Shown piece by piece: positions 12,818 through 15,800 of a DNA stretch of 18,376 nucleotides (position 1 is its first letter; the number at the start of each line of letters is the position of its first letter). The translations under genes were made by a program, and so were the position numbers. Where the stretch lies: the IMG/VR virus record IMGVR_UViG_2695420859_000010, one strand, 5' to 3'. The DNA comes from a virus. Its lineage: Duplodnaviria > Heunggongvirae > Uroviricota > Caudoviricetes. The notes beneath the pieces were generated by a model. The model did no database searches and was not told the DNA's origin. It saw only the letters and a program-made list of their open reading frames with translations.

Positions 12818-12840
12818 GAACCGCTGAGGCGGTTTTTTTA
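12818..12840 (+). terminator. Terminator-like hairpin plus T-tract between the GT chaperone and the tape measure gene
   Basis: GAACCGC-TGAG-GCGGTT followed by TTTTTTTAC. The stem is identical to the hairpin at 5255-5271. Confidence 0.45.
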
Positions 12841-12857
12841 CGCCCGGAGAAAGGTGA

Positions 12858-15800
12858 ATGGCGACGTTACGTGAACTGATTATCAAAATTTCGGCAAATT
12901 CACAGTCATTCCAGTCGGAGATCCAGCGAGCGTCCCGTATGGGCAGTGAATATTACCGGACCCTGCAGAATGGCGGGCGTCAGGCCGCTGCGGCAGCCCG
13001 GGAGCAGCGACGTGCCCTGGCAGAACTGAACAGCCAGTTGACGGAAATCCGCGCTTCGGCTGTCGGAATGACCGGTGCGTTTGCCGGTGCCTTTGCCACC
13101 GGACACCTGATTTCACTGGCGGATGAGTGGAGTTCCGTGAATGCCCGTCTGAAACAGGCATCACAGTCATCCGATGAATTTTCGTCATCACAGAAAGTGC
13201 TGATGGATATCAGTCAGCGGACAGGTACCGCTTTTTCGGATAATGCGGCCCTGTTTGCCCGTTCGGCAGCCTCGATGCGTGAATATGGTTACAGTGCTGA
13301 TGATGTGCTGAAGGTGACGGAGGCCATTTCCACGGGGCTGAAAATCTCCGGTGCCAGTACGGCTGAGGCGGGTTCGGTGATCACCCAGTTCAGCCAGGCG
13401 CTGGCACAGGGTGTGTTGCGCGGTGAGGAATTTAATTCGGTCAATGAAAGTGGTGACCGGATCATTCGTGCACTGGCTGCAGGCATGGGCGTGGCCCGTA
13501 AAGATCTGAAGGCGATGGCGGACGATGGTCAACTGACGGCGGATAAAGTCGTTCCTGCGTTAATCAGCCAGCTGGAGGTATTGCGTGATGAATACGCGGC
13601 CATGCCGGAAACGGTCTCTGACGGGATCACAAAGGTGGAAAACGCCTTTATGGCCTGGGTGGGTGGTGCGAATGAGGCCAGCGGGGTGACAAAAACGCTC
13701 TCCGGCGTGCTGAACGGTGTTGCCGGTAATATTGATAATGTGGCAACAGCCGCGGGGGCGCTGGTTGCCGTCGGGGTTGCCCGGTACTTTGGCAATATGG
13801 CCTCCGGAGCGGTGTCTGCCACGGCAGGACTTGTGACGGCTGCACGTAATGAAGTTGCACTGGCGGAAGCACAGTTCAGGGGAACGCAGATTGCCACGGC
13901 GCGGGCAAGGGCAGCCGTGTACCGTGCTCAGCAGGCCGTGGCGGCAGCCCGCGGGACGGAGATGCAGATTGCAGCAGAGGCCCGTCTGGCGGCCACACAG
14001 GAACGCCTGAACAGAAATATTGCTGCCAGAAGCGCCGCCCAGAATGCGCTGAACAGTACAACGGCGGTGGGCTCACGTCTGATGAGCGGTGCGCTGGGGC
14101 TGGTTGGTGGCGTACCCGGACTGGTGATGCTGGGGGCTGCAGCATGGTACACGCTGTACCAGAATCAGGAGCAGGCCAGGGAGTCTGCGCGCCAGTATGC
14201 ACTGACGATAGATGAAATCGCGCATAAAACGCCGTCAATGTCTCTGCCTGAAGCCTCAGATAATGAAGGACGAACACGGGCGGCGCTGACAGAGCAGAAC
14301 CGGCTGATTGATGAACAGGCCAGTCGGGTGAAATCCCTGCAGGAAAAAATCGCAGGATATCAGTATGTTCTGGCGAACCCGGGCTGGACGACCGGTGACG
14401 GATTCATGATAAACCATCTGACATCGGTGAAGACCGTAACGGAAGGGCTTGCTCAGGCAACAGAGCAGCTTGCCGTTGAGCAGTCCCGTCTGGCACAGAT
14501 GCAGGAAAAAGCGCAGTCCATTCAGGATGTGCTTGCCGGGCTGGAAGACCGTCGTGTGGCGTTAATTCGTCAGCAGGCGGCAGAGCAGAATAAGGTGTAC
14601 CAGTCCATGCTGGTTATGAACGGTCAGCATACGGAATTCAACCGTCTGCTGGGGCTGGGTAATGAACTGCTTCAGCAGCGGCAGGGACTGGTGAATGTGC
14701 CGTTACGGCTGCCACAGGCCACTCTGGATGATAAACAGCAGAGTGCCCTGACAAAAACAGAGCGTGAGCTGGCCCTGTCCAGACTGAAAGGGGAAGAAAA
14801 AGAGCGTGCCCGGCTGGGGTATGCGGCGGATGACCTTGGTTTTGTGGGGGATTCGTATCAGGAGGCGAGACAGCGTTATATCAGTAATGCTCTGGAAGCC
14901 TGGCGTAATAACGAGGCGAACAAACCTAAATCCCGGGGTGGAAAATCAGAGACGGAAAAAGCGGAAGACAGTTTTTCCCGGCTACTGAAGCAGCAGAAAG
15001 AGCAACTGGCACTGGCGGGTCAGAATACAGAGCTGGCGAAGCTGAAGTACCAGACTGCGCAGGGCGAACTGAAAACCCTGACGGAGATGCAGAAGCAGGA
15101 ACTGCTGCGTAACGCGGCCCTGATTGACCAGCAAAAAATCCGGGAACAGTTGCGATCCCGGGAAGAGACCCTGAAGAATGATAATGTGGCTGCGCGTGCA
15201 TCAAATGAAGCCGAACTGCTGGGATACGGGCAGGGAGAACGAGCCAGGGAACGCATGCGGGAGTTGCAGCAGATCCGCGACAGCTTCCGCCAGAAGGATG
15301 CGGACCTTCAGTCTCAGTATCAGACCGGGGATATCAGTGAGGATTTTTACAGACAGGCACGGGCACAGAACGCGCAGTATCTGAGCGAACGCCTTAAGGA
15401 CCAGGCAGCCTTTTATGCCGAATCGGATGCGCAGCGTGCGGACTGGCAGAAAGGCTTGCAGGAGGGGCTCAGTAACTGGTTGGATAATGCGTCCGATTAC
15501 GCCTCACAGGCAGCACAGCTTGCGACGGAGGGTATCTCAGGGATGGTGAATAACATCACGGAGATGCTGAACGGAAATAAAGTGGAATGGCGCAGCTGGG
15601 CCTCATCAGTGCTGCAGGAAATATCAAAAGTTCTTATGAATGCCGCGATTGTCAACGGAATTAAGACGGCGGCAAACGGTATGTCCGGTGCGGGAGGATT
15701 TCTCGGCAGCATTGGTGACTGGCTGGGCGGGGCGGTGGCCAATGCAAAAGGCGGCGTGTATACCTCGGCAAACCTGAGTGCGTACAGCAACAGTATTGTG

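Follow-up and report, generated by a model that had tools for sequence, protein, structure and literature searches.

The window, by which we mean the whole stretch of 18,376 nucleotides that was analysed, corresponds to the late region of a lambdoid prophage that resembles Stx phages and has a tail module of the HK97 type. The genes and hairpins that concern us here are as follows.

3569-5230: terL, upstream of the site A hairpin
5255..5276, plus strand: site A hairpin, GAACCGC-TCCG-GCGGTT with a T run, between terL and the protease/capsid gene (-10.9 kcal/mol)
5294-7231: protease/capsid fusion gene, downstream of the site A hairpin
7246..7267, plus strand: strong hairpin without a T run, directly after the capsid gene (-18.9 kcal/mol)
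11363..11383, plus strand: third hairpin, CCCGC-CGCGT-GCGGG with six T, just upstream of the major tail gene (11400)
12083..12505, plus strand: tail assembly chaperone G (Pfam Phage_TAC_1, E 1.7e-61)
12529..12810, plus strand: T segment of the G-T frameshift product (Pfam Phage_tail_T, E 4.8e-19)
12818..12834, plus strand: site B hairpin, GAACCGC-TGAG-GCGGTT (from the sequence; isolated fold -10.3 kcal/mol; variants in relatives)
12833..12839, plus strand: U-tract, a run of seven T, the first two also forming stem pairs (from the sequence; 6-9 T kept in relatives)
12846..12849, plus strand: GGAG, the likely tape-measure ribosome-binding site, 8 nt before the ATG at 12858 (read from the sequence)
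12858..16100, plus strand: tape-measure protein gene (Pfam Phage_HK97_TLTM, TMP_3 and Tape_meas_lam_C)

The Pfam matches to the flanking genes agree with the placement that an earlier, sequence-only reading had given to site B, with the G/T chaperone genes before it and the tape-measure gene after it. An AAAAAAG slippery site inside G (12496-12502), together with a -1 frame that is open from 12481, supports G-T frameshifting. The 47-nt gap between T and the tape-measure gene has no ORF and contains only the putative terminator and the tape-measure ribosome-binding site, at which CCGGAG or CTGGAG is recurrent in relatives; a hairpin was present in every gap of 40 nt or more of the window's structural operon. 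Site B consists of GAACCGC (12818-12824), a TGAG loop (12825-12828), GCGGTT (12829-12834) and five further T residues up to 12839. Its core stem is 6 bp (AACCGC/GCGGTT) with four G-C pairs, and G.U and A-U pairs extend the pairing to 12816-12837 (8-9 pairs). The element lies 7 nt past the T stop codon (12810) and 18 nt ahead of the tape-measure ATG, co-oriented with the late operon, and on the antisense strand at site B no T run follows the stem. When folded in a 46-nt context, site B gave z = -1.4 and the minimum free energy structure was a competing fold, not the hairpin; the folding prediction also includes an alternative fold in which the GGAG can pair with the 3' arm of the putative terminator. 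The stem-loop of site A (5255-5271, with the T run reaching 5276) gave z = -3.2 in a context of the same length. The built-in terminator scan lists site A and omits site B because the stem extension consumes T residues, and its total for the window was at chance (16 found vs 15.5 expected), so that it is uninformative about site B. No sense-strand sigma-70-like promoter was found by the promoter scan anywhere in the window.

The set of close relatives comprised 80 IMG/VR loci. Among them site B has a second allele, AAAACCTGC-TGTG-GCAGGTTTTTTTT, in which a compensatory T:A pair has been inserted into the same stem, and a C-to-T wobble variant and T-run length variants were also seen. The extra T:A stem pair (AACCTGC/GCAGGTT) occurs with site A unchanged, and the main stem variants of the two sites are found in mixed combinations. 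Site A itself varies in its loop (TCCG, TGCG or TGTG) and shows an A-to-G change that yields a wobble pair, and the third hairpin (11363-11383) is invariant among relatives. The tracing of site A is shorter than that of site B, since head-module identity falls from at least 90% to 46% (Moraxella phage Mcat6) with no intermediates. Further away, all phages with 64-84% identity in the N-terminus of the tape-measure protein had a hairpin followed by a T run, with different stems. A hairpin with a T run lay just ahead of the tape-measure start in 50 of 80 prophages from different species, as 39 distinct hairpin sequences, against a background of 64 of 1887 random 110-nt windows (3.4%; binomial P about 1e-52, with loci that are not independent). 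Within these 50 loci it lay 17-26 nt ahead of the aligned tape-measure start, except for a distance of 33-38 nt in the Pseudomonas and Salinicola loci, which probably arises because the true start is upstream of the aligned point. The T run, of 6-9 T in relatives, was strongly conserved across the 50 loci, and in cargo-free loci the loop was hypervariable while the stem and T run were conserved. When 20 hairpin-only junctions were aligned with MAFFT and folded with RNAalifold, no structure emerged, as loops of differing length had shifted the stems against one another; hairpin detection in each sequence, with a random-window control, took the place of alignment folding. The description of site B as terminator-like is thus borne out: many phages keep a hairpin and T run at this junction even as the sequence of the stem differs. 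No hairpin was found at the junction in lambda, HK022 and the Proteus, Morganella and Xenorhabdus prophages, or in about one third of the sampled relatives, so that any function would be accessory; in four loci (L202, L212, L213 and L179) the hairpin was retained and the T run had decayed. The window's junction was found in 1245 of 5426 complete E. coli genomes.

In HK97-type tail modules the T/tape-measure junction is the classic slot for the insertion of morons, cargo genes that bring expression signals of their own, and in the window this slot is empty. Morons carry their own promoter and terminator, and gp15 of HK97 is placed between the chaperone and tape-measure genes (PMC3594210). Three states of the junction were found. 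In the first, the tape-measure gene abuts T, at most 28 nt away, and there is no terminator-like hairpin with a T run; L179, with a gap in this range, retains a same-stem hairpin whose T run has decayed. In the second, which is the window's type (gap of 32-37 nt among the sampled loci), only the hairpin is present, and it is kept despite a T protein at 53-57% identity. In the third (gap of more than 270 nt), one or more low-GC cargo genes are followed by the hairpin, with the one exception of L178, where the cargo gene is on the opposite strand; a cargo gene on the sense strand was always trailed by the hairpin. In five close relatives (L059-L061, L068 and L069) T and the hairpin are separated by a lipoprotein gene of 137 aa, an extra gene in this slot was also found in 26 genome loci, and the GC content of the cargo in relatives was 0.30-0.50 vs 0.50-0.63 for the G/T genes. 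Of the features that mark a moron, the window has no extra gene, divergent base composition is not applicable to a gap of 47 nt, and a putative factor-independent terminator does stand at the 3' boundary; the 10-15 nt ahead of its hairpin are similar to the sequence that flanks the lipoprotein cargo gene of the relatives on its 3' side. For annotation, three states of the junction can be told apart (genes that abut, a terminator alone, or a terminator preceded by cargo), which makes it easier to find the cargo genes of prophages; many of these encode lipoproteins or small membrane proteins with a possible role in blocking superinfection. The feature is an ordinary one, of practical use for annotation, and opens no new mechanism.

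From its anatomy and position, its structure preserved through sequence change, its link to cargo genes and its variation independent of site A, site B is most likely an intrinsic (Rho-independent) terminator at an empty moron slot, which would stop polymerase that is not Q-modified and be read through by polymerase that is. The stem-loop is stable alone, at the weak end of the range, it carries a U-tract in an intergenic and co-oriented position, and relatives keep both structure and U-tract under sequence change (39 distinct hairpins, 50 of 80 loci). That transcripts actually end here, and which polymerase population is acted on, we infer from these sequence features. Q renders polymerase resistant to downstream intrinsic terminators. 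In a lysogen, polymerase lacking the Q modification, coming from moron promoters or stray promoters, would halt at the site B U-tract, so that the tape-measure and distal tail genes would stay silent. During lytic growth, Q-modified polymerase from pR' would pass through site B, and at most a minor fraction would terminate, or would leave a 3' end with a stabilising effect on the V-G-T message. In lambdoid Stx phages it is Q-antiterminated polymerase that transcribes the late operons, and Term-seq data exist for E. coli O157 Sakai (PMC7547250); a literature search for transcript maps of this phage type yielded none that resolves the T/tape-measure junction. We count against the terminator reading that the hairpin is short and weak, at about -10 kcal/mol, with a competing minimum free energy fold in context, and that the window, having neither a cargo gene nor a predicted upstream sense promoter, has no evident non-antiterminated transcription to stop.

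The conservation of the hairpin-only state in diverged phages suggests a role that is independent of morons, and the empty-slot model explains this loosely. It is conceivable, if doubtful, that the terminator is itself the conserved feature of the junction, selected even without cargo, which may act both as an insulator that silences the tape-measure and distal tail genes in lysogens and as a landing pad. If true, the insulator role may avoid toxicity or detection by host defence systems. A landing pad would offer a ready-made 3' end that lets a gene inserted just upstream be expressed safely, and would explain the many unrelated cargo genes at this junction across Enterobacterales and Pseudomonas prophages.

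A lytic-cycle attenuator, in which the hairpin ends a substantial fraction of late transcripts and leaves less mRNA for the tape-measure and low-copy distal tail genes than for the major tail protein and chaperones, is a possible but less likely way in which the tape-measure copy number is set. Site B directly follows V, G and G-T, the last of the tail genes with high-copy products, a partial terminator would be expected to have a weak hairpin such as this one (about -10 kcal/mol), and the hairpin-only state is the one conserved in diverged cargo-free phages. Moreover, the blocks for abundant proteins, protease/capsid and V-G-T, are bracketed by hairpins in both the window and HK97, where a 'putative terminator' at 5192-5213 corresponds in position to the window's 7246-7267 hairpin and another at 6692-6719 to the hairpin at 11363-11383. 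However, late transcription in lambdoid Stx phages relies on Q antitermination (PMC7547250), a hairpin at this junction is missing from lambda, HK022 and about one third of the relatives, whose tails are of the same kind, and some lineages, represented by the four loci named above, have lost the T run and kept the hairpin. The bracketing of both gene blocks for the most abundant proteins would also suit an RNA-stability or processing element, a stem-loop that acts as a 3' exonuclease barrier or an endonuclease-cleavage boundary and prolongs the life of the V-G-T segment, and the hairpin at 7246-7267, having no T run, cannot be a classical terminator. We regard this as improbable for site B, where the T run is strongly conserved (6-9 T in the 50 loci) although an exonuclease barrier needs none, and where a hairpin of -10 kcal/mol would be a weak barrier. 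That site B is a decaying relic, the leftover terminator of a deleted cargo gene with no present function, fits with the hairpin always trailing a sense-strand cargo gene, with the resemblance to the lipoprotein 3' flank and with the decayed T runs at some hairpin-only loci, but is very unlikely given that hairpin and T run are kept in cargo-free loci with T proteins only 53-57% identical, that the loop is hypervariable against a conserved stem and T run, and that the inserted compensatory pair and the wobble changes point to purifying selection.

The sequence-only reading had also observed that site B repeats the stem of the hairpin at 5255-5271 with a different loop, and this was confirmed: across 23 nt, spanning the stem-loop, the T run and the following A, sites A and B are identical at 21 positions, and both differences are in the loop. 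The pattern GAACCGC-N4-GCGGTTTTTTT has exactly two matches in the window, even with two mismatches allowed, and none in 200 dinucleotide-preserving shuffles, a test that exaggerates the surprise of a common stem because terminator stems come from a narrow sequence set. The further proposal, that reuse of the stem points to a shared RNA element, was not supported. A sequence-specific element of this kind, through which one factor or a small-RNA family (isrK-like, Hfq-binding) would co-regulate capsid and tape-measure, could draw on the 21 identical positions, on the location of both sites 17-18 nt ahead of a start codon, and on a sub-threshold Rfam match to isrK at 12772-12839 (27.1 bits, E 0.022 across the window). 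It is nevertheless highly improbable, since the two stems assort independently among close relatives, a different stem is tolerated at site B, and an IMG/VR motif scan placed AACCGC-N4-GCGGTTTTTTT in at least 41 phage contexts that are unrelated, with UUCG as the loop in 17. Two distinct hairpins taken from T/tape-measure junctions already have about a 9% chance of identical inner 6 nt, and in HK97 the same kind of stem coincidence exists between two annotated terminators. Most likely, the stem identity of sites A and B reflects a generic and very common terminator hairpin, (A)ACCGC-tetraloop-GCGGTT-Un, and not a sequence-specific shared function; it could be due to convergence or to an old copy. 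Identical short terminator stems in one genome are thus no evidence for a shared regulatory RNA.

A search of Rfam at the gathering threshold gave no match in the window. The isrK match (RF01394), seen in E-value mode, scores far under the gathering score of 50, and its likeness to this Gifsy-1 Hfq-binding sRNA is a weak covariance-model match driven by two GC-rich hairpin-like stretches, one of them imperfect, and by the putative terminator. isrK sits directly downstream of the Q-like gene antQ and does not lie in a tail operon (PMC4825925), whereas the window match falls between T and the tape-measure gene; from its score and genomic position it was rejected as a member. Weak Rfam matches to rimP, sR44 and mir-1306 were spurious. 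The Pas sRNA preprint places sRNAs beside capsid and tail genes and has nothing specific to the T/tape-measure junction.

Among known systems, lambda has a homologous G, T and H gene order with G-T frameshifting, but its T overlaps H by 8 nt and leaves neither an intergenic gap nor a hairpin. The generic enterobacterial and phage terminators AACCGC-UUCG-GCGGUU-Un have a stem and U-tract identical to those of the window, and differ in the loop, which in the window is UGAG at site B and UCCG at site A. The annotated elements in HK97 (NC_002167, 'putative terminator', 8398-8422) and HK633 (NC_019719, 'rho-independent terminator', 8401-8425), both of which follow the gp15 moron, share with site B the position immediately ahead of a homologous tape-measure gene (in HK633 the N-terminus has 84% identity), the orientation, and a short GC-cored stem with a T run, at 12-18 nt from the start codon. 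Their stem is ACCCGC-TATCAA-GCGGGT vs AACCGC-TGAG-GCGGTT in the window, and the gp15 cargo gene stands between T and the hairpin, where the window has none. Compared with the lambdoid moron cassettes of promoter, cargo gene and terminator (Juhala et al. 2000, as summarised in PMC3594210), the window has the putative terminator alone, without cargo gene or promoter, but in the same slot, and its relatives carry low-GC lipoprotein or small membrane-protein genes there, followed by the hairpin.

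The window was 95-99% identical to the late region of long-tailed lambdoid Stx-converting phages, among them 2851, YYZ-2008, 1717 and many Stx1a and Stx2c phages. Its genes (Pfam) and intergenic hairpins are as follows:

3569-5230, terL (Pfam)
5255-5276, site A, terminator-like hairpin between terL and the protease/capsid gene
5294-7231, protease/capsid fusion (Pfam)
7246-7267, strong hairpin of the GGGAGGCG-TGCG-CGCCTCCC type without a T run, directly 3' of the capsid gene, -18.9 kcal/mol
10989-11333, tail completion protein (Pfam)
11363-11383, hairpin CCCGC-CGCGT-GCGGG plus T6, just 5' of the major tail gene
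11400-12116, major tail protein (Pfam)
12083-12505, chaperone G (Pfam)
12529-12810, T (Pfam)
12818-12839, site B, terminator-like hairpin between T and the tape-measure gene
12858-16100, tape-measure protein, HK97-type (Pfam)

These gene calls agree with the sequence-only reading in placing site B between the G/T chaperone and the tape-measure gene, and an AAAAAAG slippery site at 12496-12502 together with a -1 frame relation is consistent with G-T frameshifting. The only structural-operon gaps of at least 40 nt were 5231-5293, 7232-7275, 11334-11399 and 12811-12857, the remaining genes overlapping or lying at most 23 nt apart, and all four contain a hairpin, followed by a T run in three and by none after the capsid gene. 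The hairpin at 7246-7267 may stabilise the capsid mRNA, and that at 11363-11383 showed no variation among about 40 relatives.

Elsewhere in the window, two ORFs that overlap, 7443-8807 and 8804-9865, together make up a portal gene of about 2.42 kb. The portal CDS of phage 2851 is undivided at 2580 nt, and Stx2a_1447 is annotated with two; the split could mean that the prophage is defective and has undergone a frameshift or a deletion. Small ORFs and a strong 13-bp hairpin followed by a T run (638-670) lie in the 481-nt gap (548-1028) between the lysozyme (14-547) and Rz (1029-1502) genes; the gap looks like another insertion, inside the lysis cassette. The 290 nt that separate terS from the HNH endonuclease gene (2719-3008) hold several copies of GTTAAC or ATGTTAAC-containing motifs, candidates for repeats recognised in terminase binding or at cos.

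Inspection of the sequence confirmed that sites A and B have the same stem and differ in the loop alone: GAACCGC-TCCG-GCGGTT at 5255-5271, with a T run to 5276, and GAACCGC-TGAG-GCGGTT at 12818-12834, with a T run to 12839, differ at only two loop positions over 23 nt including the A after the T run. When the window was searched for GAACCGC-N4-GCGGTTTTTTT with up to two mismatches, these were the sole matches, and the pattern appeared in none of 200 shuffled sequences. The isolated hairpins fold at -10.9 (site A) and -10.3 kcal/mol (site B); within its 46-nt context site B is unremarkable (z = -1.4), with a competing structure as the minimum-energy fold. A terminator scan listed site A and missed site B because extension of the stem consumes T residues, and its total for the window was at chance level (16 versus 15.5 expected). 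The minimum-energy fold, at 12824-12849, pairs GGCG of the terminator 3' arm with a downstream CGCC and part of GGAG, the tape-measure ribosome-binding site; it could reduce tape-measure translation in read-through RNA, and CG(C/T)C(C/T)GGAG recurs in relatives.

Eighty IMG/VR loci represented close relatives; the G protein they share was 89-100% identical full-length, or 95-100% over residues 10-140. Their T/tape-measure gaps fall into two allele classes, the window type and AAAACCTGC-TGTG-GCAGGTTTTTTTT, in which a single T:A pair is inserted symmetrically into the window stem; further variants carry a C-to-T change with wobble pairing or differ in T-run length. In five of the 80, all close E. 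coli relatives (L059-L061, L068, L069), a 137-aa lipoprotein without a Pfam match is encoded by a low-GC gene between T and the hairpin (3292-3705 in L068). The junction at 12740-12900 was present in 1245 of 5426 complete E. coli genomes, in up to seven copies per genome, annotated with the T and tape-measure CDSs only.

A hairpin with a T run also lies directly 5' of the tape-measure ribosome-binding site in all five more distant phages compared (HK633, Klebsiella Kp4874-4, Serratia OS31, LMessi and 606R7; tape-measure N-terminus 64-84% identical); only 606R7 shares the AACCGC/GCGGTT stem of the window, and the other four have stems unlike it. When one genome per species was scanned, 80 prophage loci were obtained from Enterobacterales, Pseudomonas and Salinicola, and 50 of them have a hairpin and T run 17-26 nt upstream of the aligned start of the tape-measure gene (39 distinct hairpins), compared to 3.4% of random 110-nt windows from the same loci (binomial P about 1e-52, with loci that are non-independent). 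For the Pseudomonas and Salinicola loci it was 33-38 nt, an offset that probably arises because the alignment begins downstream of the real start codon.

Sorting the loci by how far the tape-measure start lies from the T stop codon gave three states of this junction, or slot. Gaps of at most 28 nt (among others in Proteus, Morganella, Xenorhabdus and some Pantoea prophages) had no terminator-like hairpin with a T run, and one such locus, L179, has a same-stem hairpin with a decayed T run. Gaps of 32-37 nt hold the hairpin only, with the T run intact in 16 loci and decayed in three. Gaps above 270 nt hold at least one low-GC cargo gene and then the hairpin; cargo includes lipoproteins and, judged by eye, small membrane proteins resembling YebO/gp15 and putative zinc-ribbon membrane proteins with CxxC pairs. 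Only L178 among the cargo-bearing loci lacks a sense-strand terminator, and there the cargo gene is encoded on the opposite strand. The many unrelated low-GC cargo genes in the prophage gaps (L169-L239) also include antirepressor-like genes in opposite orientation. In hairpin-only loci the CCCGC/GCGGG stem core and T run are kept while the T protein falls to 53-57% identity and the loop is hypervariable, which argues for purifying selection on the hairpin even without cargo. This systematic three-state picture of the cargo slot is a modest by-product of the analysis.

The proposal that stem reuse marks a shared RNA element is not supported; independent variation, a generic motif and the HK97 parallel argue against it. 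At site A, relatives keep the stem with loop TCCG, TGCG or TGTG and an A-to-G change giving a G.U pair, and on contigs with both sites the main stem forms at site A, GAACCGC and GGACCGC, each co-occur with both AACCGC and AACCTGC at site B; the variants thus assort independently. Among the 39 distinct junction hairpins, CCGC lies beside the loop in 62% and exact AACCGC in 7.7%, and two drawn at random share the inner six bases 9.4% of the time, a rough guide only as the sites are homologous. AACCGC-N4-GCGGTTTTTTT had at least 122 matches on at least 120 IMG/VR stretches; among the matches listed, 19 resembled site A or B and the other 103 fell in at least 41 unrelated flank contexts, at least 17 of them with a UUCG loop, and the exact site A loop TCCG occurred in at least two unrelated contexts. 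The HK97 terminators before the major tail and tape-measure genes likewise have a common ACCCGC/GCGGGT core. Sites A and B may have a common origin by copying; a sequence-specific function of the shared stem is not supported. The Rfam isrK model (E-value mode) matched 12772-12839 with 27.1 bits (gathering score 50; window-wide E = 0.022) and, more weakly, 11280-11383 (18.2 bits), covering the hairpin before the major tail gene. In Gifsy-1, isrK directly follows the Q-like gene antQ (PMC4825925), and we rejected this identity for 12772-12839 on the sub-threshold score and different genomic position, the matches reflecting generic structure (two GC-rich hairpin-like stretches, one imperfect, plus a terminator) and not homology.

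The comparison with relatives supports the terminator-like reading of site B, which has the hallmarks of an intrinsic terminator: a conserved T run, on the sense strand, after a stop codon. Lambda Q-modified polymerase ignores downstream intrinsic terminators. In lambdoid Stx phages the late genes are read from pR', and the polymerase is Q-antiterminated (PMC7547250). Such polymerase would pass site B, and the most likely role of site B is therefore to stop polymerase that is not Q-modified. Transcription from cargo-gene or stray promoters in the lysogen, for example, would stop there, insulating the tape-measure and distal tail genes; in the window the slot is empty. No transcript data resolving the T/tape-measure junction were found in the literature. 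The suggestion that site B is an attenuator lowering tape-measure transcription fits a weak hairpin right behind the final high-copy tail genes and has conservation of the hairpin-only state in its favour, but Q antitermination and the many phages without the element make it unlikely. A role purely in RNA stability, which would leave the conserved T run unexplained, is less likely.

Morons, cargo genes with their own expression signals, carry in their own promoter and terminator, and the first described, gp15, separates the tail chaperone gene from the tape-measure gene (PMC3594210). In lambda T overlaps H, and in HK022 the T/tape-measure gap is 19 nt without a hairpin, so the element is dispensable for building such tails. 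HK633 has its tape-measure-upstream terminator annotated as "rho-independent terminator", and the HK97 late operon has five putative terminators in GenBank:

1 of 5, before the protease gene
2 of 5, after the capsid gene
3 of 5, before the major tail gene
4 of 5, after the major tail gene
5 of 5, 8398-8422, in the gp15 moron/tape-measure gap

The hairpin at 7246-7267 sits at the position of the one after the capsid gene and that at 11363-11383 at the position of HK97 6692-6719. Altogether the four window hairpins occupy four of the five HK97 positions, which makes the window feature an unannotated case of an arrangement already known.
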